DNA of 64,000 nucleotides, from the NCBI GenBank assembly GCA_031260975.1, contig JAISKJ010000003.1, positions 436,065 to 500,064 on the forward strand. Reading direction: 5' to 3'. Under the pieces are notes generated by a model. The model was given only the letters and a program-made list of their open reading frames with translations, did no database searches and was not told the DNA's origin. The position numbers and the translations under genes were made by a program. This document shows, piece after piece, positions 4,800 through 58,748 of this stretch. Positions within the stretch are counted from its first letter, which is position 1; each line of letters opens with the position of its first letter. Source of the DNA: Christensenellaceae bacterium (GTDB taxonomy: Bacteria; Bacillota; Clostridia; Christensenellales; UBA1242).

Positions 4800-4817
4800 T
4801 TGCATAATACTATGCAA
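4800..4817. repeat. palindromic repeat copy TTGCATAATACTATGCAA (perfect)
   Basis: 7-4-7 inverted repeat, identical to copies at 23025, 32782 and 32815; followed by ACTTTTTGTCGAAT flank shared with the 58685 locus. Confidence 0.9.
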
Positions 4818-13726: not shown

Positions 13727-15826
13727 ATGAAACATATGAATGCAGACAAAAAGGGTACATCCTTTGAAACTTCTATCGGCGGCAAAAAGGTAACAGTTCT
13801 CACCGGAAAGTATGCCGAGCAGTCAAACGGTTCGTGCATGATCAGCTGCGGTGAAACTGTTTTGCTGGCCAACGTTTGTATGGCGAACAAACCGCGCGAC
13901 GGCATAGACTTTTTCCCGCTGAGCGTGGACTATGAAGAAAAAATGTATGCCGTTGGCAAAATCCCCGGAGGGTTTAAAAAGCGTGAAGGGCGGGCCAGCG
14001 ACAAGGCAATATTGACCTCAAGGCTTTGTGACAGGCCGCTGAGACCTTTATTTCCAAAGGGGTTTTATAATGATGTTACAATTGTGATAACTGCGCTTTC
14101 TGTAGACCCCGCTTATGCCCCCGAGCCGCTTGCTATGCTGGCCTCATCCGTTGCTCTTACCATCTCGGATATCCCGTTTATGGGGCCTACAGGTGCTGTT
14201 TCGGTAGGGCTTATTGACGGTAAGTATATTGCCAACCCGACTTCTGAGCAGCGTGAAAAAAGTGTTATGCATGTATATGTCAGCGGAACCAAGGAAGCCA
14301 TTTTGATGGTGGAGGCGGCTGCTAATGAAGTCAGCGAAAAAGAAATGCTGGGCGCAATTATGTTTGCTCACGAAGAAATTAAGAATCTGGTTGACTTTCA
14401 GCAAAAAATTCAAAAGAAGGTCGGAGTTAAGAAAGCAACCGATTATCCGATAATTTTGCCGGCAAGTGAAGTTTTTGATGCGGTGAGAGATTATGCCGAC
14501 AAAAGGCTTGATAAAGCTCTTGACAATTTTGAACGTGAAGAAAGACAGAAAAAGCAGAGTGAAGTTGAAGAGGACGTTAAAGAGCACTTTAAAGATAAGT
14601 TTGACGAGCGTTCACTTGATGAAGTGCTTTATAAAATAGTCAAAAGCAAGGTGCGTGAAAAAATATTGTCAAAGGGCGTTCGTCCGGATGGGCGTAAGTC
14701 CACTGAAATCAGACCCATTTGGTGTGACGTTGGGATGCTTCCAAGAGTTCACGGAAGTGCTGTGTTCACCCGAGGTCAGACTCAGGTTTTAACCGCGCTT
14801 ACTCTTGGCATGATGAACGAAGTTCAGCGGCTTGAAGGGCTTGACGATGAAGAAGAAAAAAGATATGTTCACCATTATAACATGCCTGCTTATGCCACGG
14901 GAGAGGCAAGATCGCTTAAGCTTCCGGGAAGGCGTGAGATTGGTCATGGGGCTTTGGCTGAGCGTGCACTTGAACCGGTAATACCCAGCGAAGAAGAATT
15001 CCCATACGCATTGCGTTTGGTGAGTGAAGTTCTCAGCTCAAACGGCTCATCATCAATGGCCAGCACCTGCGGATCTACGCTTGCGCTTCTGGATGCAGGC
15101 GTGCCTATCAAATCGCCTGTAGCGGGCATTGCGATGGGGCTGATAAAAGATCCTAAAACAAATAAAGTGGCGATTTTGAGCGATATACAGGGCTTAGAGG
15201 ACTTTTTGGGCGACATGGACTTCAAAGTTACGGGCACAACAAAGGGTATTACGGCTATTCAGATGGATATCAAAATTGCCGGAATTGACGAAAAGATTTT
15301 GCAGACTGCGCTTGAACAGGCAAGAGTAGGCAGAATTGAAATTCTGGGTGAGATGCTCAAGGTCATAAAAGTGCCAAACAAGAACCTGAACAAATATGCA
15401 CCCAAGATTATTACTTTCAACATTGACCCTGATAAAATCAGAGATGTTATCGGCAGCGGCGGAAAGGTTATTAACAAGATTATTGAAGAGACGGGCGTTA
15501 AGATAAACATTGAAGACGACGGAAAGGTGGATATCGCCAGCAGCGATGAAGTGCAGCTTAAGCGGGCTAAGGAGATAGTCATGGGCATCGTTGAGGATTT
15601 GGAAGTCGGCAAGGAATATGATGGCAAGGTTATGCGTATTATGCAGTTTGGTGCATTCGTTGAAGTTTTACCTACCAAAGAAGGAATGATACATATTTCC
15701 AAGCTCAGCGAAGAACATGTTGCCAAAGTAACAGATGTTGTAAACATTGGTGACAAGGTGAGAGTAAAGGCTATTAAGGTTGACGAAAAAGGCAGAGTAG
15801 ATTTTAGGCTCGTAAAAAAACTTTAA
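13727..15826 (+). CDS. pnp: polyribonucleotide nucleotidyltransferase (PNPase)
   Basis: 699 aa; two RNase PH domains, KH and S1 (GKVMRIMQFGAFVE); rpsO-pnp synteny. Confidence 0.97.
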   Translation: MKHMNADKKGTSFETSIGGKKVTVLTGKYAEQSNGSCMISCGETVLLANVCMANKPRDGIDFFPLSVDYEEKMYAVGKIPGGFKKREGRASDKAILTSRLCDRPLRPLFPKGFYNDVTIVITALSVDPAYAPEPLAMLASSVALTISDIPFMGPTGAVSVGLIDGKYIANPTSEQREKSVMHVYVSGTKEAILMVEAAANEVSEKEMLGAIMFAHEEIKNLVDFQQKIQKKVGVKKATDYPIILPASEVFDAVRDYADKRLDKALDNFEREERQKKQSEVEEDVKEHFKDKFDERSLDEVLYKIVKSKVREKILSKGVRPDGRKSTEIRPIWCDVGMLPRVHGSAVFTRGQTQVLTALTLGMMNEVQRLEGLDDEEEKRYVHHYNMPAYATGEARSLKLPGRREIGHGALAERALEPVIPSEEEFPYALRLVSEVLSSNGSSSMASTCGSTLALLDAGVPIKSPVAGIAMGLIKDPKTNKVAILSDIQGLEDFLGDMDFKVTGTTKGITAIQMDIKIAGIDEKILQTALEQARVGRIEILGEMLKVIKVPNKNLNKYAPKIITFNIDPDKIRDVIGSGGKVINKIIEETGVKINIEDDGKVDIASSDEVQLKRAKEIVMGIVEDLEVGKEYDGKVMRIMQFGAFVEVLPTKEGMIHISKLSEEHVAKVTDVVNIGDKVRVKAIKVDEKGRVDFRLVKKL

Positions 15827-15835
15827 ATTAATGTC

Positions 15836-15910
15836 AAGTGAGTATATGTATCTCTAGGCTTCGGCATCTTTGATGCCTGCAGAAGCGTTCAGAGATATAT
15901 ATACTCACTT
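15836..15910 (+). terminator. 75-nt extended hairpin after pnp; core is member A of a two-copy repeat
   Basis: 20-bp outer stem AAGTGAGTATATGTATCTCT/AGAGATATATATACTCACTT, inner GCTTC/GAAGC and GGCATC-TTT-GATGCC. Confidence 0.65.
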
Positions 15911-16038
15911 TTCAATAATATAGTTTTTTGTTCATCCTGCAGTAAACTGCTGTTTGGGAAGAAAGAAGGCAAAAAAGAAGAGCAATGTACCCCCTCTTTA
16001 TCAAGCATTTCTTTTTGCGGCCTTGCATATAAATTATC

Positions 16039-21699: not shown

Positions 21700-23010
21700 T
21701 TGACTGAAGAAAAACTAAACAAAACAGTTGGATTTGTGTCGCTTGGGTGTGACAAAAACAGGGTGGATACCGAAAGCATAATAACCACTCTTTATGCTAA
21801 TGGTTTTAAAACAACAGGAAACATAAATGATGCTCAGATAATAATAATAAACACCTGTGCTTTTTTAAAGTCTGCTCGTGATGAGGCTCTTGCCACTATG
21901 CTTGAAATGCTGGATTATAAAAAGACAAGTGCCGAAAAAATAATCGTGGCAGGCTGTCTTTGTCAAATGGATGATAAGCTCAAAGAAAAGTATCCTGAGA
22001 TTGACGCTTTTATTACGCCCAAGGATTATGGCGATATTGCAAAGATAATATACGGCCTTTATGGAAAGCCTTATAAAAACTCCAACGGTGTTCCGGATTA
22101 TCGCAAAATTACAACGCCCGGGCATTTTGCATATCTTAAGATTGCCGAAGGCTGTGACAATTCCTGTAGCTATTGCACAATTCCAAAAATTAAAGGACCC
22201 TATGTCAGCGAACCTATTGAAAGTCTTGTAAAAACGGCGACGATACTTGCTGAGCAGGGAGTGAAGGAGCTCATTTTGGTGGCGCAGGATACCACAAGGT
22301 ATGGGCTTGACTTATATAAAAAACAGACTATTGCTGAGCTTTTAAAAAAGCTTAGTGAAATTAATGGTATTGAATGGATACGCTTGCATTATTGTTATCC
22401 TGAGATGCTGACGCCGGCAATAATAAACGAAATTGCGACTAACCCCAAGGTTGTAAAGTATCTGGATATTCCGTTTCAGCATGTAAGCACAAAGGTACTT
22501 AAGTCCATGAACAGAGCAGGCAACGAGCAATCTGTAAAATTGATTGTTGAAATGCTGCGCTCTAAAATTCCGGAGATAGTGCTCAGGTCCACTTTTATTG
22601 TAGGCTTTCCGGGGGAAACTAATGAGGACTTTAAACTTCTTTTGAAGTTTTTGAAGGAATATAAATTGGATGCCGTCGGCTTCTTTGCATATTCAAATGA
22701 AGAGGGAACTCCATCTTTTGAATTTGATGGGCAACTTAGTCAAAAAGAAAAGCAAAAGAGGCTGGAGGCCGCTCAGAAGATTCAAAGCAAAATTGCCTTT
22801 GAGCTAAATCAAAAGTTTATAGGCGCCACCCAAAAGGTGTTGTGCGACGGATTTGATCAGGCGAATGGCCTATATTATGGGCGTAACTATGGTAGCTCAC
22901 CGGACGTTGATTTTGTTGTGTATATAAATGGGAAATGCAGTATAGGTGATTTTGTATCAGTAAAAATTACTGATGCAACAGACGAGTATTTGATAGGGGA
23001 AATTGCATAG
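21700..23010 (+). CDS. rimO: ribosomal protein S12 methylthiotransferase RimO
   Basis: 436 aa; UPF0004 N-domain, radical-SAM CDNSCSYC, TRAM C-domain; TTG start. Confidence 0.9.
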   Translation: MTEEKLNKTVGFVSLGCDKNRVDTESIITTLYANGFKTTGNINDAQIIIINTCAFLKSARDEALATMLEMLDYKKTSAEKIIVAGCLCQMDDKLKEKYPEIDAFITPKDYGDIAKIIYGLYGKPYKNSNGVPDYRKITTPGHFAYLKIAEGCDNSCSYCTIPKIKGPYVSEPIESLVKTATILAEQGVKELILVAQDTTRYGLDLYKKQTIAELLKKLSEINGIEWIRLHYCYPEMLTPAIINEIATNPKVVKYLDIPFQHVSTKVLKSMNRAGNEQSVKLIVEMLRSKIPEIVLRSTFIVGFPGETNEDFKLLLKFLKEYKLDAVGFFAYSNEEGTPSFEFDGQLSQKEKQKRLEAAQKIQSKIAFELNQKFIGATQKVLCDGFDQANGLYYGRNYGSSPDVDFVVYINGKCSIGDFVSVKITDATDEYLIGEIA

Positions 23011-23042
23011 TATTATGCAATAGTTTGCATAATACTATGCAA
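23003..23042. repeat. two perfect palindromic repeat copies in opposite orientation (TTGCATAGTATTATGCAA tagt TTGCATAATACTATGCAA)
   Basis: 23003-23020 and 23025-23042; first copy contains the rimO stop codon. Confidence 0.92.
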
Positions 23043-27696: not shown

Positions 27697-29010
27697 ATGG
27701 AAAAATGTTACCACATACACACCTACGGCTGCCAGATGAATGTTCACGAATCCGAGAAGCTGGCGGGCGTACTTAATAAATTGGGATATACTGAGACGCC
27801 TGATGAGAAACAGGCGTCTGTTATAGTTTTTAACACTTGCTGCATTAGAGAGAGTGCCGAGCAGCACGTATACGGCAATATTGGAGCGTTGAAGCAGCAT
27901 AAAAAACAAAACCCAGAGCTTATTATTGCGGTTTGTGGCTGTATGAGTCAACAAAAAGCAACTGCCGATAACATAAAGGCAAAGTATCCTTTTGTAAACA
28001 TAGTTTTTGGAACGCATAACATTCATATGTTTGAAGAATATCTCAAAGAGGCTGAGAAAGAAAAGCATGTGTTTGCTTTGTGGGAAAAAGAACAAGAGAT
28101 TGTTGAAAACACATCGGTATACAGAACCAGCGACAACAATGCGTGGGTTAACATAACTTATGGTTGCAACAACTTTTGCACTTATTGCATTGTTCCGTTT
28201 GTGCGAGGGAGAGAACGTAGCCGTAAAGCGGCCGATATCATAAACGAAGTCAAGGGATTGATAGGAAAGTATAAAACCATAACGCTTCTTGGGCAAAACG
28301 TAAATTCATATGGAAAAGACTTTGGTGATGGCACAGATTTTGCGGGGCTGCTTGAGGATTTAGCTAAGCTCGAGGGAGATTTCAGAATAAAGTTTTTGAC
28401 TTCGCACCCAAAAGATTTGAGCCAAAAAGTTATTAATGTGATTGCAAAAAACAATAAAATGAGTAAAACAATTCATTTGCCTGTGCAGTCTGGCAGCAAC
28501 AAGATTTTGAAGCTTATGAACCGAAGTTACACCAGAGAGCACTATATTTCATTGATTGACAGCATAAAAAAGGCTATGCCTGATGCTGTGATTACGACTG
28601 ATATTATAGTTGGATTTCCAGGGGAAACCGATAGCGATTTTGAAGAAACTATGGATTTGTTAAGGTATTGTAACTTTGCCGGAATTTTTGCTTTTATGTA
28701 TTCAAAAAGACGTGGTACACCTGCTGAAATAATGGATGGACAGGTTTCGATTGAAACAAAGCGAAAGCGTGTGAATGCCGCTCTTGACCTTCAGCGCAAA
28801 ATTAGCGCTGAGGTTATGCAGAGCTTTTTGGGTAAAACCTTAGAGGTTTTGACAGAAATGTTTAACGGTAAGGTTGTGGGACGAACGGAATTCGGAAAGC
28901 TTGTTGACCTTGATAAAGAGGCCGAACAAGGCAGTTTTTATGAGGTAGAAATTACTAAGATACTCAGCAAGAAGTTTGCAGGCAAGATTTTGAACAAAAG
29001 GGTATTGTAA
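27697..29010 (+). CDS. miaB: tRNA-i6A37 methylthiotransferase MiaB
   Basis: MEKCYHIHTYGCQMN N-terminus, radical-SAM CNNFCTYC, TRAM domain. Confidence 0.92.
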   Translation: MEKCYHIHTYGCQMNVHESEKLAGVLNKLGYTETPDEKQASVIVFNTCCIRESAEQHVYGNIGALKQHKKQNPELIIAVCGCMSQQKATADNIKAKYPFVNIVFGTHNIHMFEEYLKEAEKEKHVFALWEKEQEIVENTSVYRTSDNNAWVNITYGCNNFCTYCIVPFVRGRERSRKAADIINEVKGLIGKYKTITLLGQNVNSYGKDFGDGTDFAGLLEDLAKLEGDFRIKFLTSHPKDLSQKVINVIAKNNKMSKTIHLPVQSGSNKILKLMNRSYTREHYISLIDSIKKAMPDAVITTDIIVGFPGETDSDFEETMDLLRYCNFAGIFAFMYSKRRGTPAEIMDGQVSIETKRKRVNAALDLQRKISAEVMQSFLGKTLEVLTEMFNGKVVGRTEFGKLVDLDKEAEQGSFYEVEITKILSKKFAGKILNKRVL

Positions 29011-29021
29011 GAAACCAAACG

Positions 29022-29113
29022 GGGCATTTTGTCACAAAAAGCAGCAGGCTTTTTGTGACGGCACAAACACAGTTTGTGCCGTGGGCGCCCAAATATGGGC
29101 GCGCAAAATGCCC
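29022..29113 (+). other. structured intergenic element E1: three hairpins closed by a 10-bp outer stem
   Basis: Outer GGGCATTTTG/CAAAATGCCC (29022-31/29104-13); H1 29032-58 (11 bp), H2 29059-81 (10 bp), H3 29085-102 (7 bp). Confidence 0.7.
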
Positions 29114-29134
29114 ATACCTAAAAGGAGAAATGAT

Positions 29135-31714
29135 ATGGCACTTTCACCAATGATGCAACAGTATATGGAGATAAAACAAAACTATAAGGATTGCTTGGTA
29201 TTTTGTAGGCTCGGAGATTTTTATGAGCTGTTTTTTGACGATGCTTTGATAGCCTCAAAAGAGTTGGAGCTGACTCTCACGGGGCGAAACTGCGGCCTTG
29301 AAGAAAAGGCTCCCATGTGCGGTGTTCCTTATCACGCTGCCGAAGGGTATATAGCCAAACTTATTGAAAAGGGCCATAAAGTAGCAATTCTTGAGCAGCT
29401 CAGCGAGCCCGCTCCAGGCAGGCTTGTTGACAGACAGGTGGTAAGGGTGATTACTGCAGGCACGGTGACCGATGCCGGCATGCTTGATGACAAAAAGAAT
29501 AATTATATTGCGAGTATATATTTAGGTGACAAGGGCGCGGGAATTGCTTATGCCGATGTTGCAACGGGTGAATTTTGCGTAAATTCCTATCAGGAAGAAT
29601 TTTTGACAAACCTCAATGACACTCTTACGCGCATAAGACCTGCTGAAATAATATGCTCAAAACGGGTGCTTGAACAAATTGCCGAGATTCCTTGCGTGAA
29701 GGCTAACATAATGCCTCGGTTTGAAGAATATCCCGAAGTTTTTTTTGACTACAAAAACGCAACCGAAATAATAAAGCGCCAGCTTAAGATTGCTACGCTC
29801 ACAGGTTTTGATTTTGCCAAGCTTGAATATGCAATTTGCGCCAGCGGAGCGCTTATAAATTATATATTAGAAACTCAAAAACGAGACCTTAATCACATAA
29901 ACCGCATTATATGCGAAAAGAATGATTCTTATCTATATCTCGATCCGGCTACAACTCGCAATCTTGAACTTGTTGAAACAATCAGGGAGCAAAAGAAAAA
30001 GGGCTCATTGCTGGGGCTTTTGGATAATACCAAAACCAATATGGGAGCAAGGCTTCTGCGCACATGGATACTTCAGCCTTTGCGTGACCCAGAGCAAATC
30101 AATCGCAGACTTGAGGCTGAGGAAGAACTTATTGGCGAGCATATTTTGTTTAATGACATAACGGCGAGTCTTTCAAAAGTTTCGGATATCAGCAGGATTG
30201 CTGGCAAAATATCCTTTAATACCGTTATGCCGCGCGATTTGATTTTGCTCAAAAATTCGATTAAAGAAGCAATGGAGCTTAGTGTACTTGTAAAAAATCT
30301 TAAGAGTGAGACTTTAAATGGGCTTATTTCGGATTTTTATAAACTTAAAGAAGTTTTTGAAGAGATTGAAAAGGCTATTGATGAGGAACCACCTTTGGTG
30401 CTTACCAACGGAGGTTATATAAAGAAGGGATTTAGCGGTGACCTTGACAATCTTCGTGCCACAACAACTGACGCTCAGCAATGGCTTGCGGCACTTGAGG
30501 CAACCGAGCGTGAGCAAACGGGTATCAAAAACATTAAGGTTGGATATACGCGTGTGTTTGGATATTACTTAGAGGTTCCCAAGTCTCAGCAGGATCAGGT
30601 GCCGTATAGATATCAACGCAAGCAAACGGTGGTAGGAGCTGAGCGATATGTCACCGAAGAACTCAAACAGATTGAAGAAAAAATAATGAACAGCGAAGAG
30701 CTTTCACTCAAGCTTGAACAGCAGTTATACAGCGAGCTTAAAGAGTTTTTAAAAACCGCTGTAACAGCTCTTCAAAAAACGGCAGGAGACATTGCTATGC
30801 TTGACTGTATATGTGCACTTGCTGAAACTGCAAAGACACGCGGCTTTATAAAGCCCGTTATAAACGGCGGCATAAAGGCAATCAATATAACAGATGGCAG
30901 GCATCCCGTGGTTGAAGCGTTGCTTAAAGATGAGCAGTTTGTTCCTAATGACTGCTATCTTGACTGTGATAAAAACAGAACTATGATAATTACCGGTCCT
31001 AATATGGCCGGCAAAAGTACCTATATGAGGCAGGTGGCACTCATTGTTCTGCTTGCTCACATGGGCAGTTTTGTTCCGGCAAAATCTGCTGAGATTAGCC
31101 TTACTGACCGAATTTTTACTAGGATTGGCGCCAGCGATGATCTGGCATATGGGCAGAGTACGTTTATGGTGGAGATGGTTGAGGTTTCAAACATTTTAAA
31201 CAATGCAACCAAAAACAGTCTGCTTGTTTTGGATGAGGTTGGCCGAGGTACTTCCACTTTTGACGGGCTCAGTATTGCGTGGGCGGTAATTGAACATGTA
31301 ACCAAAAACATAAAAGCCAAAACACTTTTTGCCACGCACTATCACGAGCTTACTGAACTTGAAGGGCAGCTGGAGGGAACGAATAATTACCGCGTGGCTA
31401 TTCAGGAGTTTAACAACAGCATAATTTTCCTTCACAAAATTGTAAGAGGAGGCACCAGCCGAAGCTTTGGAATTGAAGTGGCGTCCCTTGCCGGCATAGG
31501 TTCAAATATAATAGGGCGGGCTAAGCAGATTTTGCATACCCTTGAGCAAAATGACCTTGAGGGTAGCAGTAAGCTTGTAACACTTGAAAAATCCAAAGAA
31601 CCAAAGGGGGAACTAACAGGCAAGCTGAAAAACCTTGATATGAATACTGTTACTCCTTTGGTGGCGTTTGACATTTTAAAGGAACTAAGCGATAAAGCTA
31701 AAAGGAGTGACTAA
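29135..31714 (+). CDS. mutS: DNA mismatch repair protein MutS
   Basis: MALSPMMQQYMEIK start with AAGGAG SD; GPNMAGKST Walker A; ORF-track start 29081 lies inside element E1. Confidence 0.97.
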   Translation: MALSPMMQQYMEIKQNYKDCLVFCRLGDFYELFFDDALIASKELELTLTGRNCGLEEKAPMCGVPYHAAEGYIAKLIEKGHKVAILEQLSEPAPGRLVDRQVVRVITAGTVTDAGMLDDKKNNYIASIYLGDKGAGIAYADVATGEFCVNSYQEEFLTNLNDTLTRIRPAEIICSKRVLEQIAEIPCVKANIMPRFEEYPEVFFDYKNATEIIKRQLKIATLTGFDFAKLEYAICASGALINYILETQKRDLNHINRIICEKNDSYLYLDPATTRNLELVETIREQKKKGSLLGLLDNTKTNMGARLLRTWILQPLRDPEQINRRLEAEEELIGEHILFNDITASLSKVSDISRIAGKISFNTVMPRDLILLKNSIKEAMELSVLVKNLKSETLNGLISDFYKLKEVFEEIEKAIDEEPPLVLTNGGYIKKGFSGDLDNLRATTTDAQQWLAALEATEREQTGIKNIKVGYTRVFGYYLEVPKSQQDQVPYRYQRKQTVVGAERYVTEELKQIEEKIMNSEELSLKLEQQLYSELKEFLKTAVTALQKTAGDIAMLDCICALAETAKTRGFIKPVINGGIKAINITDGRHPVVEALLKDEQFVPNDCYLDCDKNRTMIITGPNMAGKSTYMRQVALIVLLAHMGSFVPAKSAEISLTDRIFTRIGASDDLAYGQSTFMVEMVEVSNILNNATKNSLLVLDEVGRGTSTFDGLSIAWAVIEHVTKNIKAKTLFATHYHELTELEGQLEGTNNYRVAIQEFNNSIIFLHKIVRGGTSRSFGIEVASLAGIGSNIIGRAKQILHTLEQNDLEGSSKLVTLEKSKEPKGELTGKLKNLDMNTVTPLVAFDILKELSDKAKRSD

Positions 31715-33558
31715 TGAAAATAAACATATTAGACAGTAGCATATACAATCGAATTGCAGCGGGTGAAGTTGTTGAACGTCCTCATTCGATTGTCAAGGAG
31801 CTTGTTGAAAATAGCGTTGATTCGGGGGCTGACAGTATAATAATAGAAGTTGTGGGCGGCGGTATGCGCTCTGTGAAAGTGACTGACAACGGCAGTGGAA
31901 TTGACTTTGATGACCTGACGGCCGCATTTTTGCCGCATGCAACCAGCAAAATCAAAACAACCGACGACCTGAATTCAATCGCTACGCTGGGTTTTAGAGG
32001 TGAAGCACTTGCCAGCATCGGCTCGGTAAGTGAAATTATGTTGAGCTCCAAAACTAAAGGAGCCACTACCGGCGGTGAGGTTGAAGTAAGAGGCGGAACC
32101 ATTTCTAAACCCCATCCTAAGGGGTGCCCCGAAGGGACGCATGTTGTGGTGAATAACTTATTTTTTAATACTCCGGCCCGAGCCAAGTTTTTAAAGTCAG
32201 CCAAAACTGAAGAAAGTTATATCACCAATCTGGTTGAGCGCACAATCTTAGCCCATCCGAATATCAGTTTTAAGTATATTGTCGACGGCAAAATTGTATA
32301 TCAGACAACGGGCAAAGGCCTTGAAGAGGCGATTTATGTGATTTATGGCAAGGAAACAACGGGAAACTTAATCAGTGTAGAATATAAAAATTCTAGCCTA
32401 ACCATATCCGGTTTTGTGGGCCGACCGACTTATACTAAGCCTAATCGTACTTATCAGACGCTGGTCATAAACGGCAGGTATGTTGTTGACAGTCTTGTTT
32501 CAACGTCGGTTTTCAATGCTTTTTCGAACTATATGATGAAGGGCAGGTTCCCGTTTTTTGTTCTTTTTATAAATATGCCCTATGAGGATGTTGATGTAAA
32601 TGTTCATCCAAACAAGCTGGCTGTAAGATTTGTAAACTCCAATGGTGTGTATGTTGCGGTAAGCAATGCTGTCAGCGGCGCGTTGCTTAACGCCAACAAT
32701 ATTGTTGACGCTGTGACAACTGCTGAAAACGAGCCGATTGTGCCGATGCCAAAGGTGACGGGCAGGAGTTTTGGGGAGAGTTTGCATAATACTATGCAAA
32801 CCTTGGATGAAAAATTGCATAATACTATGCAAACAATTGACACAAAGCCCGCAGTTTCAAGTCCGATACTGCCAAATATTCCTATTACGCCTGTGGCAAC
32901 GCTAAAGGATGATGGTGGAATATATTATCAGACACTTCAGAATTATGTCAAGGCAGCTGCTCAGCCTGAAGTTTCACTTGCCGAAGGAGTTGAGGATTTT
33001 AAGATAATCGGCACAGTATTTACCACCTACATAATTGTGGAGCACAAAGGTGAAGCATATTTTATTGACCAGCACGCAGCGCACGAGCGGCTTTTGTTTG
33101 ACAAATTTTCGGCCGAATTTGAAAAGAAACAGGTTAATATCCAACAGCTGTTTGTGCCGTATGTGTTGCGGATTAATAGTGTTGAGGATGTATTTTTAAA
33201 GGAACACCTTAATGATTTTGGTGAGCTGGGCTTTGAGGTTTCGGAGTTTGGCAATCTTTCATACAAGGTTTCAAGTGTGCCGCTTAGCCTCAGTCAAATA
33301 GACCTGAGTGCATATTTTGATGACAGTCTTAAAAACCTTAACAAGCTTGGCAGCAGCGTTGAAGTCAGGCACTTTTTGGCCACAAAGGCATGCAAGGCAG
33401 CGGTCAAAGCCGGGCATGATTTAAATGGCACTGAAATTGCAACGCTGCTTAAAGAAATCAGCAAATCGGGAACAACCTTGCTTTGTCCGCACGGTAGGCC
33501 TGTTTGCGTAAGGCTTAAAAAAACCGACGTTGACAAATGGTTTAAGAGGATTGTATGA
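31714..33558 (+). CDS. mutL: DNA mismatch repair protein MutL
   Basis: 614 aa; GHKL ATPase motifs (ELVENSVDSGA, DNGSGI), C-terminal dimerisation domain (FIDQHAAHER). Confidence 0.95.
   Translation: MKINILDSSIYNRIAAGEVVERPHSIVKELVENSVDSGADSIIIEVVGGGMRSVKVTDNGSGIDFDDLTAAFLPHATSKIKTTDDLNSIATLGFRGEALASIGSVSEIMLSSKTKGATTGGEVEVRGGTISKPHPKGCPEGTHVVVNNLFFNTPARAKFLKSAKTEESYITNLVERTILAHPNISFKYIVDGKIVYQTTGKGLEEAIYVIYGKETTGNLISVEYKNSSLTISGFVGRPTYTKPNRTYQTLVINGRYVVDSLVSTSVFNAFSNYMMKGRFPFFVLFINMPYEDVDVNVHPNKLAVRFVNSNGVYVAVSNAVSGALLNANNIVDAVTTAENEPIVPMPKVTGRSFGESLHNTMQTLDEKLHNTMQTIDTKPAVSSPILPNIPITPVATLKDDGGIYYQTLQNYVKAAAQPEVSLAEGVEDFKIIGTVFTTYIIVEHKGEAYFIDQHAAHERLLFDKFSAEFEKKQVNIQQLFVPYVLRINSVEDVFLKEHLNDFGELGFEVSEFGNLSYKVSSVPLSLSQIDLSAYFDDSLKNLNKLGSSVEVRHFLATKACKAAVKAGHDLNGTEIATLLKEISKSGTTLLCPHGRPVCVRLKKTDVDKWFKRIV
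32782..32832. repeat. two perfect direct copies of the palindromic repeat, in frame inside mutL
   Basis: TTGCATAATACTATGCAAAC at 32782-32801 and 32815-32834, period 33 nt, translated LHNTMQT twice. Confidence 0.92.
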
Positions 33559-36324: not shown

Positions 36325-37362
36325 CTAATTATCCCGCAGTTTCACCTTATTTGCAGCGGATTTTCGGATATCCTCACTTATGGCGGCGTAATGTTTTCGT
36401 GTGGTGTTTACGTCTTTATGCCCCAAAACATCGGCCACCATATAAATATCGCCTGTTTCACGATATAAATTTGTGCCGTATGTACTTCTTAGCTTGTGGG
36501 GTGTAATTTTTTTGAGAGGAGTGGATACCGAACTATATTTTTTTACTAATTTTTCAACAGCTCTAACGCCGATTCTTTCGTTTCGAAGCGATAGAAATAG
36601 TGCATTGTCGTCGGTTTTTTTGTTAAGCTTGCGTTTTTCAAAATATTCTCTTAAGGCATCAGCCACTTCATCCGAAAAGTATAATATTGCCTGATTTCCG
36701 CCTTTTCGCATAATTCTGAAACTATTTGCATTAAAGTCGATATCATCCAAATTTAAACCCACAAGCTCGCTTATACGAATACCTGTTCCTAAAAAAAGCG
36801 TTAAAATTGCTAAATCTCGTGTTCTGGTATGCTTATTAAATTCAAGTTGCATATGGCTGAATTTGATAGGGGCTTCGGTTTGGTCCAAAAGCTTTACCAC
36901 CTCGTCAACCTCAAGGCGGATAATTTCTTTAGTGTGAATTTTTGGCATTTCTATTTTTGTTGCAACATTGGCGTCCAGCTTATCTTTGTTAAAAAAATAT
37001 TTAAAAAGACTGCGCACTGCTGCCAACTTGCGTGCCTTTGCCTTGTCGTTATTCTGAATTTTTTTGCCGTTATGCTCATAAAAACTCAGATATGATAAAA
37101 ACTTTTCAATATTTGAAGAGGTGACTGCATTTAGGTGCTTAAGTTCGAGCTCGGTAATCCGAAAGTTGTCGAATTTGGGAAGTTTTTTTACTAAAAAGTC
37201 AAAAAAAATGCCCAGATCCCTCGCATAGTTTATTCGAGTAAGAGGGGTGGTCCGGCTTTCAATACCTATGAAAAAGTCTTCGCAAAATTCGGGAAGCTCA
37301 CCCATGATGTTGTCTAGAGCTTGCGTATTTTTTTCGTTGCGTTCGACAAAATAATTACTCAC
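36325..37362 (-). CDS. tyrosine site-specific recombinase, XerC/XerD-like
   Basis: 345 aa; SAM-like N-domain, catalytic R..HKLR..LGHKDVNTTRKHY; GTG start; co-oriented 10 nt upstream of lexA. Confidence 0.85.
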   Translation of the reverse strand: MSNYFVERNEKNTQALDNIMGELPEFCEDFFIGIESRTTPLTRINYARDLGIFFDFLVKKLPKFDNFRITELELKHLNAVTSSNIEKFLSYLSFYEHNGKKIQNNDKAKARKLAAVRSLFKYFFNKDKLDANVATKIEMPKIHTKEIIRLEVDEVVKLLDQTEAPIKFSHMQLEFNKHTRTRDLAILTLFLGTGIRISELVGLNLDDIDFNANSFRIMRKGGNQAILYFSDEVADALREYFEKRKLNKKTDDNALFLSLRNERIGVRAVEKLVKKYSSVSTPLKKITPHKLRSTYGTNLYRETGDIYMVADVLGHKDVNTTRKHYAAISEDIRKSAANKVKLRDN

Positions 37363-37544: not shown

Positions 37545-37573
37545 TTGACATTTTTGGCAGGGAATATTATAAT
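37545..37573 (+). promoter_or_regulatory. consensus sigma-A promoter of serS (TTGACA-17-TATAAT)
   Basis: -35 at 37545-50, -10 at 37568-73. Confidence 0.75.
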
Positions 37574-37578
37574 ATAAA

Positions 37579-37596
37579 TTGCATAATGCTGTGCAA
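37579..37596. repeat. palindromic repeat copy, 2 mismatches (TTGCATAATGCTGTGCAA)
   Basis: Starts about 6 nt after the serS -10 box, at the predicted transcript 5' end. Confidence 0.8.
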
Positions 37597-37611: not shown

Positions 37612-38901
37612 ATGATAGACATAGAGCTTATAAGAAACAATCCTGAAATGGTCAAAAAAAATATAAAAAAGAAGTTTCAGGACAAAAAACTGCCGCTTGT
37701 TGATGAGGTGAAAACTCTCGACATAAGAAGCCGCAGTCTTAAGCAGGAAATTGACAGTCTCAGAAGCAGCCGCAACAAGTTGAGCCAAGAAATTGGCGAG
37801 TTTATGAAGCAAAAGAAAAGCAGTCAGGCTGAAACGCTGAAAAAACAGGTTGTGGATATAAACACTAAGGTTGCTGAGCTTGAGACGGAATATAATGAGG
37901 TAGGCACAAAAATCAACCAAATTATGATGACAATTCCAAATATCATAGCTGATGATGTGCCGGTTGGCCGCAGCGACGCCGAAAATGTTGAGCGTGAAGT
38001 GTTTGGCAAGCCAAAGAAGCCGGATTTTGAAATTCCATATCATGCCGATATTATGGAGAATTTGTGTGGGCTTGACAAAGATAGTGCCGGAAAAACCTCA
38101 GGTAATGGATTTTATTTTTTGATGGGTGATGTGGCAAGGCTTCATTCAGCCATTTTGTCGTATGCCCGTGATTTTATGATAGACAAGGGTTTTAATTATT
38201 GTATTCCTCCGTTTTTGATACACGCAGACGTGGTCAGAGGCGTTATGAGCTTTGCTGAAATGGACGCTATGATGTATAAAATTGAAGGCGAGGACCTTTA
38301 TATGATAGGCACCAGCGAGCACTCAATGATAGGAAAATATAAAGATGCCGTTTTAAAGGAAGAAGATCTTCCGATTTGTCTTACGTCATATTCGCCGTGC
38401 TTCCGTAAAGAAGTTGGTGCACACGGCATTGAGGAACGCGGCATATACAGAGTTCATCAGTTTGAAAAGCAGGAAATGATAGTAATTTGCAAAAAAGAAG
38501 AAGCTAGAATGTGGTATGATAAAATGTCGCATTTTGCGGTTGATTTTTTTAAAAGTCTTGAACTGCCGGTGCGTATTTTAGAATCATGTAGCGGGGATTT
38601 GGCCGATTTAAAGGTTAAGGGTTGCGATATTGAGGGATTTAGTCTGAGGCAGCAAAAGTATTTGGAGCTTGGAAGCTGTTCGGATATGGGAGACGCTCAG
38701 GCACGAAGGCTGGGTATGCGATATAAGACGGCAAGTGGTACAGTTTTTGCGAACACTTTAAACAACACCGTTGTGGCTACACCCAGGGTGTTGACTGTGT
38801 TTTTTGAAAATCATCTGCAAAAAGATGGTTCGGTAAATATACCAAAAGCTCTTCAGCCTTATATGGGAGGCAAAACTAAGCTGGAACCAAAAAAGAAATG
38901 A
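37612..38901 (+). CDS. serS: seryl-tRNA synthetase
   Basis: MIDIELIRNNPE start with GGAGG SD; coiled-coil N-domain, class II motifs. Confidence 0.96.
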   Translation: MIDIELIRNNPEMVKKNIKKKFQDKKLPLVDEVKTLDIRSRSLKQEIDSLRSSRNKLSQEIGEFMKQKKSSQAETLKKQVVDINTKVAELETEYNEVGTKINQIMMTIPNIIADDVPVGRSDAENVEREVFGKPKKPDFEIPYHADIMENLCGLDKDSAGKTSGNGFYFLMGDVARLHSAILSYARDFMIDKGFNYCIPPFLIHADVVRGVMSFAEMDAMMYKIEGEDLYMIGTSEHSMIGKYKDAVLKEEDLPICLTSYSPCFRKEVGAHGIEERGIYRVHQFEKQEMIVICKKEEARMWYDKMSHFAVDFFKSLELPVRILESCSGDLADLKVKGCDIEGFSLRQQKYLELGSCSDMGDAQARRLGMRYKTASGTVFANTLNNTVVATPRVLTVFFENHLQKDGSVNIPKALQPYMGGKTKLEPKKK

Positions 38902-38908
38902 AAGAGGT

Positions 38909-38992
38909 CGGGCTTTGGCGCAAACAGGAGTTTGCGCGGCGCAACTACTTGTTGCGCCGGCGTGAGCCTTCTGGCTCACGCCGCAAAGCCCG
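38909..38992 (+). other. structured intergenic element E2: three hairpins closed by a 9-bp outer stem
   Basis: Outer CGGGCTTTG/CAAAGCCCG (38909-17/38984-92); H1 38918-37 (8 bp), H2 38938-58 (8 bp), H3 38959-82 (10 bp). Confidence 0.7.
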
Positions 38993-39036
38993 CTTCATAA
39001 AATTACTCGTGGGACGCCCCCGAAAAGGAGCCGAAA

Positions 39037-39939
39037 TTGAAAAAACAAAGAATTGAACAATTTGCAACAGAAGTTAATGGCGATACTGCCAAAGAAAATT
39101 ATAAAATTGCACTTAATGTAATCATAGAGGCGCTTGAGGGGCTAACCGGTAAGGTGTCTACACTGACGCCCGAGGAAGTGCGTGTTTTTCCGATGGGTGA
39201 GCTCACCAACGGCACCTTTGTTGACACAAACGATGAAATTGAAATAGCTCTTGTCACCAGCAATCCTCAAATGGCGTTTACAAATTCCGCCTACATAAGA
39301 CTTATGTCTGAGATTAAAAAACAGAAAGACCGCGACGCAGTCAGTTCAGACAACACTACACATCAAATCATACAGCTTTTGTTTGATGAATTTATTAAAT
39401 TGTTTTCGGCTGACACTACAATCATTATAACTCAACAAGGAATAAAAATATTATCTAACAAGGAGCTTGGCTTTAAAATTATGTTACGCCTCGGCACGTA
39501 TAATGCCTATGACACAAATTTTGTGCTGTCACTGTGGAATCCTGTGCGAAAAACAACTGAAAATCTTGATATTTTCGGCTATGCTGAAGCTATGAAAAAG
39601 AAAGACGATGATACAGACGGCAACTTTAACAAAATTGTAAGAATTTTTAAAAACTTCCGTAAAGCTGTTGTGGCCAATAAATGGTTCGGCAGTTCATTTG
39701 CAAACAAATATCTGGTTGAGATGGTAGTATACAACATACCAAACTCATTGCTTAAAGGCAGTGATGTATATAAGGTTTATGTCAAAAGTATAAATTATTT
39801 ACTGAATTGTCCGCTGAGTAGTTTTAAATCTTTTAACGGCGGGCAGCTTAGTAGTTTTCCGATAGCAGGCGCAGATCAATATCACATAAAAACTTTCCTG
39901 AGCAGCTGCAGCAGATTGCTGGCGCTCAAGGATGTATAA
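39037..39939 (+). CDS. hypothetical protein, possibly a divergent Pol-beta-fold nucleotidyltransferase (CD-NTase/SMODS-like layout)
   Basis: 300 aa, TTG start with AAAAGGAG SD; MGELTNGTFVDTNDEIEIALV resembles hG[GS]x9-13DhDh with GE and EIE substitutions; later FNKIVRIFKNFRK...YLVEMVVYNIP helices. Confidence 0.35.
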   Translation: MKKQRIEQFATEVNGDTAKENYKIALNVIIEALEGLTGKVSTLTPEEVRVFPMGELTNGTFVDTNDEIEIALVTSNPQMAFTNSAYIRLMSEIKKQKDRDAVSSDNTTHQIIQLLFDEFIKLFSADTTIIITQQGIKILSNKELGFKIMLRLGTYNAYDTNFVLSLWNPVRKTTENLDIFGYAEAMKKKDDDTDGNFNKIVRIFKNFRKAVVANKWFGSSFANKYLVEMVVYNIPNSLLKGSDVYKVYVKSINYLLNCPLSSFKSFNGGQLSSFPIAGADQYHIKTFLSSCSRLLALKDV

Positions 39940-40121: not shown

Positions 40122-40186
40122 TATGTAGGCCCCATTTTGGCCCTTCTTTTAACCTCTTTTCTAAAAAAACAACCTTTTTTAACAAA

Positions 40187-40235
40187 AATATTCGACAAAA
40201 AAGCGGTGTCTTTCACCGCCCTTTTGTCGAATATT
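40187..40235. other. nested long hairpin (14-bp outer stem AATATTCGACAAAA, inner GCGGTG-TCTTT-CACCGC)
   Basis: Read directly; T-run follows on the minus strand, so possibly the terminator of the DUF45 gene. Confidence 0.65.
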
Positions 40236-40321
40236 TAACGTAACATTCTTTTTGGCAGGCAAAGTTCAGCCCCGTTTCAATCGTGTGGACACTACGGGCT
40301 TTTAAGAAAATGAAATCTCAG

Positions 40322-41035
40322 TCACCTATAAATCCCAAGCAGAAAGTTGTTGCGTTTGAGTGTGAGACGTGCCTGCTTCCAGCCTGGCATGAGGCGCTCA
40401 AGCACTGCATAAAACTTTTGCGAATGGTTCATCTCATATGTGTGGCTAAGCTCATGCAGAATTACATAATCAATGACATTGTGCGGCAGCATTACAAGCC
40501 GCCAATTTAATTTGATATTCTTATTTGTATCACAACTACCCCATTTTGCTTTAAAGTCGCCGATTTTCAGGCTTTTATAACCTATCCCGTGCGTCTTCCC
40601 AAGCGTCTCAAGCCGTTTGGTAAGTATTTCCGCCCCTAGTGCCCTTTGCCATTTCAATAAGTGTTTTATGTATGAGCCTTCTATATAATATTTATTTGGC
40701 ACGATTACCTGATTTTTTTCAATTGTTATTGTCTTTGTGTCGCCGGCGGTGATGTCATAAAGCGTTCCGCACACTGAAATTTGTTTAAAGTTGATTATGG
40801 TTTGATGGTCAATATTCACCTGTGCTATCTGCTGCATCTTTTTTTCAATCCATTTGGCTTTTTGATTTATGATTTCACCAAGCCGTTGAGTATTCATTTT
40901 TATGGGTGCAAAAACCACCAGCTTTCCGTGGGTGTCTATGGTTATCTTAACGCTTCTGCGACGCTCACGCAGAATGTCGGCGATATCTATTAAGTTTTGC
41001 ATAGTATTATTCAAACTTTGCATAGTATTATTCAA
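40322..41035 (-). CDS. YgjP-like/DUF45 family metal-dependent hydrolase (HExxH)
   Basis: HELSHTYEMNHSQKFY zinc motif, RRSVKITIDTHGKLVVFAP N-region; start ambiguous (TTG 41035, ATG 41023 or ATG 41002), all inside repeat copies. Confidence 0.8.
   Translation of the reverse strand: MNNTMQSLNNTMQNLIDIADILRERRRSVKITIDTHGKLVVFAPIKMNTQRLGEIINQKAKWIEKKMQQIAQVNIDHQTIINFKQISVCGTLYDITAGDTKTITIEKNQVIVPNKYYIEGSYIKHLLKWQRALGAEILTKRLETLGKTHGIGYKSLKIGDFKAKWGSCDTNKNIKLNWRLVMLPHNVIDYVILHELSHTYEMNHSQKFYAVLERLMPGWKQARLTLKRNNFLLGIYR
40997..41035. repeat. two direct palindromic repeat copies, 1 mismatch each (TTGCATAGTATTATTCAA), period 21 nt
   Basis: 40997-41014 and 41018-41035; encode NNTMQ twice on the minus strand. 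Confidence 0.85.
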
Positions 41036-56065: not shown

Positions 56066-56139
56066 TGGCAGGGAGTGTAGGACTTGAACCCACCTCATAG
56101 GTTTTGGAGACCTAGGCACAACCTCTATACCAACTCCCT
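56066..56139 (-). tRNA. trnW: tRNA-Trp (anticodon CCA)
   Basis: 74 nt; acceptor AGGGAGT/ACTCCCT, anticodon stem TAGGT/ACCTA with loop CTCCAAA, T-arm GTGGG-TTCAAGT-CCTAC, encoded CCA end. Confidence 0.9.
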
Positions 56140-58696: not shown

Positions 58697-58746
58697 TTGC
58701 ATAATCTTTGCATAGTATTATGCAAAAGTTTGCACAGTACTATGCA
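58697..58746. repeat. palindromic repeat cluster: half copy plus one perfect plus one 2-mismatch copy
   Basis: TTGCATAAT 58697-705; TTGCATAGTATTATGCAA 58708-25; TTGCACAGTACTATGCAA 58729-46; preceded by ATTCGACAAAAA 58685-96. Confidence 0.9.
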
Positions 58747-58748
58747 AT

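Follow-up and report, generated by a model that had tools for sequence, protein, structure and literature searches.

The element described here, E2, lies at positions 38909-38992 of a 64-kb window, which is the whole stretch of DNA that was analysed and belongs to the core chromosome of an uncultured Christensenellaceae MAG. The genes of the window include rplT, ruvAB, secDF, recJ, pnp, ftsK, recA, miaB, mutS, mutL, miaA, lexA, a Xer-like recombinase gene, serS and leuS. Upstream of E2 lies serS (37612-38901, plus strand), the transcript of which most likely carries the element, and downstream follows an NTase-like gene (39037-39939, plus strand), a distant homologue of the CD-NTases (oligonucleotide cyclases; PADLOC Cyclase, E = 1e-15). 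Seven nucleotides (AAGAGGT) separate E2 from the serS stop codon (TGA, 38899-38901), and 30 nt separate it from the next Shine-Dalgarno sequence. Because a consensus promoter-like site with 12/12 matches (TTGACA-17-TATAAT, 37545-37573, plus strand) is located upstream of serS, a sequence scan revealed neither promoter-like nor terminator-like signals around E2 between serS and the next gene, and a bidirectional terminator-like hairpin with T-runs at 40186-40236 likely represents the end of the serS/E2/NTase-like transcript, E2 is probably situated inside this transcript and hence transcribed.

The NTase-like gene, a distant homologue of CBASS cyclases, has no adjoining effector gene and looks like a housekeeping-linked orphan cyclase-like protein. 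A tyrosine recombinase gene (36325-37362) is found upstream of serS, and no transposase of any kind is present within the 64-kb window.

The window also holds other palindromic sequences. A long imperfect inverted repeat at 15814-15932, right after pnp (13727-15826), has 42-nt arms that are 79% complementary and an inner G+C hairpin; with -45 kcal/mol it is the third most stable fold of the window. Besides, an 18-bp perfect palindrome, TTGCATA(A/G)TA(C/T)TATGCAA, occurs in 10 copies, often as adjacent pairs, compared to 0.27 expected (4800-4817, 23003-23042, 32782-32832, 37579-37596, 40997-41035 and 58708-58747). One of these copies overlaps the serS promoter, two are in frame within mutL, each encoding LHNTMQ, and one is kept at the rimO-cinA junction of the relative introduced below (L084 1709-1726). 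Either a global regulator uses this palindrome as its operator, or it constitutes a second family of palindromic repeats.

Fold and sequence of E2 and its sister element E1

E2 is a nested palindrome of 84 nt, in which an outer stem surrounds three perfect hairpins of 8, 8 and 10 bp. The 5' arm of the outer stem, CGGGCTTTG (38909-38917, 9 bp), pairs with 38984-38992 and acts as a terminal inverted repeat. In the predicted fold it is followed by hairpin 1, GCGCAAAC-AGGA-GTTTGCGC (38918-38937, 8-bp stem, loop AGGA), hairpin 2, GGCGCAAC-TACTT-GTTGCGCC (38938-38958, 8-bp stem, loop TACTT), hairpin 3, GGCGTGAGCC-TTCT-GGCTCACGCC (38959-38982, 10-bp stem, loop TTCT), a lone unpaired junction base G at 38983 and finally the 3' arm CAAAGCCCG (38984-38992). 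The original prediction had placed an outer stem with three hairpins just after serS, and RNAfold returned exactly this fold, with an RNA minimum free energy of -71.3 kcal/mol and 85% of the ensemble. The mean of 200 dinucleotide shuffles was -36.7 kcal/mol (z = -10.4), and none of the 200 was equally stable. In a sliding 100-nt fold across the whole window, E2 ranks first and E1, described below, second in stability. The 100-nt segment around E2 has a G+C content of 0.60 versus 0.41 for the window overall. As all 35 of the 35 pairs are Watson-Crick pairs, both strands fold alike; under DNA parameters, the fold of the minus strand mirrors that of the plus strand at equal stability (z = -9.6 for the plus and -11.1 for the minus strand). 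These data confirm that E2 is real and far beyond chance.

Several known identities were considered for E2 and rejected. An intrinsic (Rho-independent) terminator does not apply, as E2 is followed by CTTCATAAAATTACT, which contains no T-run, and the scan reports no terminator at this position. Neither E1 nor E2 matches a curated RNA family in Rfam 15 at the gathering thresholds, the best sub-threshold score being 17 bits versus 88. ARAGORN finds only a tRNA-Trp at 56066-56139 in the window and thus no tRNA or tmRNA at E2; a tRNA-like or RNase P punctuation signal was discarded because the stems are far longer than those of a tRNA and both ARAGORN and Rfam are negative. A retron ncRNA was dismissed for want of a reverse-transcriptase gene, and a ribozyme because there are no internal loops and no conserved unpaired bases.

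On the Logan contig, a gene caller annotated a 52-aa ORF at 38898-39056 (L001 11287-11445) that consists mostly of E2. This annotation is what speaks for E2 being part of a small protein gene or, alternatively, an assembly or sequencing artefact. Against this, the identical sequence is present on a second assembly, a contig from a different pipeline (L001), related copies are present in further species and samples, and nothing comparable to the ORF exists in the relative, where the spacer measures 55 nt. We therefore see practically no chance that E2 is an artefact or coding sequence, and the ORF is almost certainly spurious.

A second element of the same plan, E1, is located at 29022-29113 between miaB (ending at 29010) and mutS (starting at 29135), so that the proposed membership of E2 in a three-hairpin/outer-stem architecture shared with E1 is borne out. 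The outer stem of E1, GGGCATTTTG/CAAAATGCCC, comprises 10-11 bp and its hairpins 10, 11 and 7 bp. Together with their flanks the ends read GAGGT-CGGGC...GCCCG-CTTC for E2 and AAAC-GGGGC...GCCC-ATAC for E1. The scant sequence similarity that had been noted between the two is equally apparent in local alignment, which scores only z = 2.2 versus structure-preserving shuffles, 13/300 of which reach as high a score. The kinship of E1 and E2 hence shows chiefly in their architecture, with weak support from the sequence.

Two further likenesses had been proposed. The motif CGTGGG(A)CGCCC, said to lie near both elements, is indeed present at 39008-39019, but its occurrence is at chance level (a single match is expected by chance in 26/100 shuffles) and in E1 the similar string is part of hairpin 3. 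Likewise, the AAAAGGAG Shine-Dalgarno sequence after each element is real (39023-39030 and 29120-29127) but is a property of the downstream genes, since the same Shine-Dalgarno sequences are also found in the relative without E1 and E2. Immediately 5' of the Shine-Dalgarno sequence of the NTase-like gene there is a G+C-rich imperfect mini-hairpin of 15 nt, CGTGGGACGCCCCCG (39008-39022, plus strand), which is missing from the spacer of the relative. It may be a leftover solo hairpin of the element family.

Filled and empty sites in related genomes

The closest relative (SerS 85%, MiaB 82% and NTase-like protein 78% identical; contigs L082 and L084-L086) was obtained from a large protein collection, whereas a SerS search among the GTDB species representatives yielded 68% SerS identity at best. 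Its spacers allow a direct comparison of sites with and without an element. Between serS and the NTase-like gene, the window has 135 nt including E2, and the closest relative (L082) has 55 nt without E2, with flanks that are alignable on both sides. Similarly, the miaB to mutS spacer comprises 124 nt with E1 in the window and 24 nt without E1 in the closest relative. After miaA the situation is reversed: only 11 nt precede the next gene in the window, but in the closest relative there are 111 nt, which contain a three-hairpin element of 82 nt (L085 6966-7047) between miaA and a gene of the Met gamma-lyase family.

The termini of this element, GGGCATTTTGC...GCAAAATGCC, match those of E1, with the common ends GGGCATTTTG...CAAAATGCC, and the 5' arm of E2 is similar to these termini as well. 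Its first hairpin, CACACAAA, resembles the first hairpin of E1, both being of the CACA(C)AAAA type. E1 and the element of the relative thus occupy non-orthologous sites in two species and yet share identical termini of 9-10 nt. Apart from this, the hairpins of E1, E2 and the element of the relative have diverged almost beyond recognition (z about 2), yet contain zero mismatches.

More distant relatives agree with this picture. A relative with 63% MiaB identity keeps the block complete, from miaB through the NTase-like gene, and its spacers that correspond to the positions of E1 and E2 measure 15-17 nt, which makes insertion the parsimonious direction of change. At about 70% SerS identity, another has only 6 nt between serS and a CD_NTase_C gene. 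Filled spacers on the one hand and short spacers in relatives on the other hand therefore identify the elements as lineage-specific insertions into conserved gene junctions. The comparison shows that, in the lineage of the window, E2 entered a pre-existing serS/NTase-like spacer after the split from the closest sequenced relative, that E1 likewise entered the miaB-mutS spacer, and that the closest relative gained its sister copy after miaA.

When the three filled/empty pairs were aligned, no target-site duplication was evident for E1 or E2 and no consistent one emerged. AGGAG is present on both sides of the insertion in the relative (L085), but asymmetrically, as it lies 10 nt from the right terminus. 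As a separate observation, the mutS-mutL spacer of the relative is a 125-nt A+T-rich sequence (L084 10241-10367) without a cloverleaf, at a position where the two genes abut in the window (31714), and thus represents a further indel at a junction of core genes.

The presence of the NTase-like gene after serS in three relatives without E2 (85%, about 70% and 63% identity; CD_NTase_C matches in the latter two; spacers of 6-55 nt) also bears on the surroundings of E2. According to the original prediction, the element marks the left border of an accessory-looking islet at 39-41 kb. This does not hold, because the pair is kept without E2, and E2 is consequently an insertion into a conserved serS/NTase-like pair and not part of an inserted block. 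The G+C content across 39-41 kb is 0.36-0.40, which is ordinary for the window, and the recombinase and lexA belong to the same conserved block in relatives. On this evidence from synteny, the serS/NTase-like pair is ancestral, with no islet at this place.

The same observations apply to the idea that E2 is an attC- or att-like recombination site that delimits an inserted 39-41 kb cassette. A folded palindrome that adjoins a poorly characterised gene, with the tyrosine recombinase gene (36325-37362) upstream of serS, would fit such a site. Nevertheless, we consider it very improbable: the downstream gene is syntenic with serS in the three relatives without E2, the recombinase and lexA are part of the conserved block, 39-41 kb shows no compositional shift, and E1 and the element of the relative are located between core genes (miaB-mutS and miaA/Met gamma-lyase-family gene). 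An integron attC site or cassette boundary was rejected on the same grounds: such a site would be gained and lost along with its cassette and have an integron integrase close by, and this combination is not found here. The original prediction had also allowed for a simple array of unrelated terminators without conserved order in relatives. Conservation is indeed lacking at the locus of E2, where relatives do not have the element; an array of unrelated terminators is wrong as well, because there is no T-run and because the architecture recurs at non-orthologous sites.

A family of elements with fixed architecture

For a systematic search we used a strict detector. Every stem, the enclosing one included, had to be perfectly Watson-Crick paired over 6 bp or more, the loops had to measure 3-9 nt, and no junction could exceed 2 nt. 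When this detector was run on SerS-anchored loci of 80 other genomes (GTDB species representatives; 1.4 Mb in total), it found one element in L009 and five in L047, two other Clostridia MAGs; if G.T pairs are allowed, a sixth L047 copy is added. Only three-hairpin elements were detected in the 1.4 Mb, never two-hairpin or four-hairpin ones, and composition-matched shuffles of the same 1.4 Mb yielded zero architectures. In 715 kb of unrelated metagenome contigs, the detector gave a single match, an unrelated CCCATGGG tandem repeat. A relaxed detector with G.T pairs and mismatches was discarded, as its counts were the same as in shuffles.

All ten elements contain exactly three hairpins, measure 79-92 nt, have an outer stem of 9-11 bp and share the termini GGC...GCC. 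Their hairpin stems comprise 6-11 bp and their loops 3-5 nt, with 0-2 unpaired bases at the junctions, and the helix pairs across elements are all standard and almost all Watson-Crick. In the source genome, two copies are present in about 70 kb, a left extension of ~6 kb being free of further elements. L047, in contrast, has six copies in 10.5 kb, among origin-proximal housekeeping genes (mnmG, rsmG, noc, soj, spo0J, serS), where some follow a gene, others lie where two genes converge, and a divergent promoter region is occupied as well. One of them lies 21 nt after the L047 serS stop codon.

The L047 copies are homologous to one another at dispersed sites (z = 5-13). Copies c and d have the reverse complement arrangement of e and f, the loops flip between TTC and GAA, and the hairpin modules are reordered. 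In the six copies, 212/212 pair cells are standard, and 36 two-sided changes are opposed to a single one-sided change (G.U), a result that 0/500 shuffles reach; as the structural alignment was built from predicted folds, these pairing statistics are inflated. Covariation was counted on L047 alone because a structure-aware MAFFT alignment of all ten elements (with N padding) lost the registers except for the six L047 copies. Between the tandem copies at 1391-1474 and 1723-1806 of L047, the four substitutions inside the element form two compensatory pairs. The surrounding region (L047 1300-1900) is a tandem duplication of about 332 bp with one cloverleaf per unit and similar flanks. It was also observed that the L047 elements are bordered by G-rich sequence to the left and by C-rich sequence to the right, so that the outer stem could continue into the flanks.

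Searches beyond these genomes gave no further members. A pattern scan of metagenomes with termini of the E1/L085 type produced 120 matches, all of them unrelated long single hairpins or chance hits, scans of viral collections with L047-type and E1-type termini retrieved zero cloverleaves, and BLAST of E2 against plasmids and phages returned no match. A literature search for cloverleaf, three-hairpin or four-way-junction repeats in bacteria found nothing matching.

Such uniformity could in principle have arisen without any movement, if each element had been built locally by template-switching or fold-back replication errors and the architecture were convergent. Perfect stems with compensatory changes fit this idea, as do the low primary-sequence similarity among families and the fact that neither a target duplication nor a transposase was seen. 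However, local errors do not account for identical 9-10-nt termini and a similar first hairpin in E1 and the element of the relative, which reside at different loci in two species, nor for the uniform hairpin number, size and GGC...GCC ends. Moreover, the arms are unlike the local flanks, and the L047 copies are clearly homologous at dispersed sites. An independent local origin is thus quite unlikely.

A probable mobile nested palindrome

Taken together, E2 is probably one copy of a small, non-autonomous mobile element, a G+C-rich nested palindrome that is REP/MITE-like but a member of neither class. The family is apparently undescribed and apparently comes and goes between neighbouring genes in related gut Clostridia.

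The position of E2 calls for a comparison with a role at the RNA level. E2 might be a locus-specific cis-acting RNA of the serS operon, i.e. an attenuator, a terminator without U-tract or a processing/stability signal, which balances serS against the NTase-like gene and has been selected in place. Its location immediately past the serS stop codon and shortly before the next Shine-Dalgarno sequence in a probable operon would suit this function, as would the extreme stability of the RNA fold and the L047 element that also follows serS. With six L047 elements in 10.5 kb, however, a position after serS is expected by chance. In addition, relatives at 85%, about 70% and 63% identity keep the gene pair but have no E2 between the two genes, and elements of this architecture also precede mutS, follow miaA and, in L047, occupy a divergent promoter region as well as the space where two genes converge. 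There is no T-run, no conserved unpaired nucleotide and no Rfam match, and the pairing is Watson-Crick-only and identical on both strands. A cis-acting RNA is therefore rather unlikely, and we infer that E2 is not a dedicated serS regulator.

For the mobile palindrome, the Watson-Crick-strict stems on both strands, the occurrence in both orientations, the GGC...GCC termini and the lack of a clear target duplication suggest that copies may spread as DNA via an enzyme with specificity for single-stranded DNA in folded form or for cruciforms, comparable to the HUH transposases of the IS200/IS605 or RAYT type. A tblastn search with an approximate query sequence detected no IS200-like TnpA near any element, and its positive control was found in L066. 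Pairing might be kept perfect in spite of sequence drift by selection on the folded form or by hairpin-templated correction. As selection on RNA alone would tolerate G.U pairs, the Watson-Crick-only stems argue for a constraint at the DNA level; together with strand equivalence and the two orientations, this pattern points to a constraint that would act on DNA or on both strands. Within the serS transcript, the four-way junction with about -71 kcal/mol could be a passive obstacle to 3'-to-5' RNA decay, a partial attenuator or both. REP/BIME, ERIC and Correia elements have been reported as mRNA decay barriers or attenuators (PMC3049150; PMC3733652).

More tentatively, the elements might constitute an undescribed class of mobile DNA that is set by shape and not by sequence: a closed four-way junction present, with unrelated sequences, in several Clostridia lineages, read by some junction-specific enzyme, with correction at the DNA level keeping the pairs Watson-Crick. 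The fixed junction shape, the perfect stems, the flipping and shuffling modules and the clean filled/empty sites in core operons, taken jointly, suggest that DNA is recognised in its folded form. In this respect, the family offers a compact natural system to study how palindromic repeats spread and stay paired. It also contains a warning for annotation, since such elements may be misread as regulatory RNAs or as the edges of islands and are a source of spurious small ORFs.

Comparison with known systems

Repeats of the REP, BIME, BOX and MITE type shape operon expression and genome plasticity. Small palindromic repeats have been described mainly in Proteobacteria and in a few cultured Firmicutes, whereas the family of E2 stems from uncultured gut Clostridia that are Christensenellaceae-like. 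In behaviour, REP/REPIN sequences with their RAYT (TnpA-REP, an HUH enzyme of the IS200/IS605 type) come closest to E1 and E2. REPs are short G+C-rich extragenic palindromes, which are mostly found just 3' of coding regions within transcription units, differ in presence and absence between related genomes without a classical target duplication, and show compensatory pairing; they presumably function as folded single strands of DNA and, at the RNA level, act as decay barriers or attenuators (PMC3733652; PMC3116915; PMC3333891). Nevertheless, a REP is a single imperfect hairpin of 20-40 nt (a REPIN consists of two), whereas E2 is a closed unit of 84 nt with four perfect helices. The terminal GTAG/CGTC tag of REPs (PMC3733652) is absent from the ends of E1 and E2, where the common terminus is GGC...GCC, and the Clostridia that host E1 and E2 are not among the phyla given for GTAG repeats in that source. 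A RAYT/Y1 transposase gene is typically flanked by REPs; within the 64-kb window there is no such gene, and no IS200-like match lies near the elements. REPs reach a high copy number per genome; the stretches examined here contain two copies in about 70 kb of the source genome and six in 10.5 kb of L047. Finally, BIMEs combine the same REP in alternating orientation with defined linkers, in contrast to the three hairpins of E2, which differ from each other, abut at 0-1 nt and are enclosed by a stem.

BOX elements of Streptococcus (boxA-boxB(n)-boxC) are described as intergenic and co-transcribed, with mobility inferred from their distribution and no clear target duplication (PMC3049150). Like E2, they have paired terminal modules around independently folding internal modules, and they occur in Firmicutes (PMC3049150). 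Compared by description, they differ in having modules of about 45-60 nt, imperfect pairing and a variable number of identical boxB units, whereas the elements of the E2 type always contain three different perfect hairpins within about 85 nt.

MITEs such as Correia, ERIC, RUP and Nezha are small elements of strong secondary structure with terminal inverted repeats, which show insertion polymorphism and affect the transcripts next to them (PMC3049150). The elements of the E2 type agree with them in size and in their perfect terminal inverted repeats of 9-11 bp, which form the outer stem and are shared between E1 and the element of the relative, and insertion polymorphism is evident at the three sites that differ between the window and its closest relative. 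Typically, however, MITEs are A+T-rich, and their terminal repeats are also those of a known IS. The elements described here have a G+C content of about 60% versus 41%, and no partner IS was found in the examined sequence. MITEs also generate target-site duplications, for which the filled/empty pairs gave the ambiguous picture described above.

Outside bacteria, the palindromic GC clusters and double hairpin elements of mitochondria in yeast, sponges and algae undergo rapid turnover between close relatives, with merging and shuffling of hairpin modules (PMC4478555; PMC2800124). As G+C-rich palindromes in A+T-rich intergenic DNA with module shuffling, they are similar to the E2 type (PMC4478555; PMC2800124), but they are organellar, consist of one or two hairpins of smaller size, are often bordered by short direct repeats and lack a fixed three-hairpin closed form. 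In light of these comparisons, E2 is best described as an architectural variant of the small palindromic mobile repeats that is new in its geometry.
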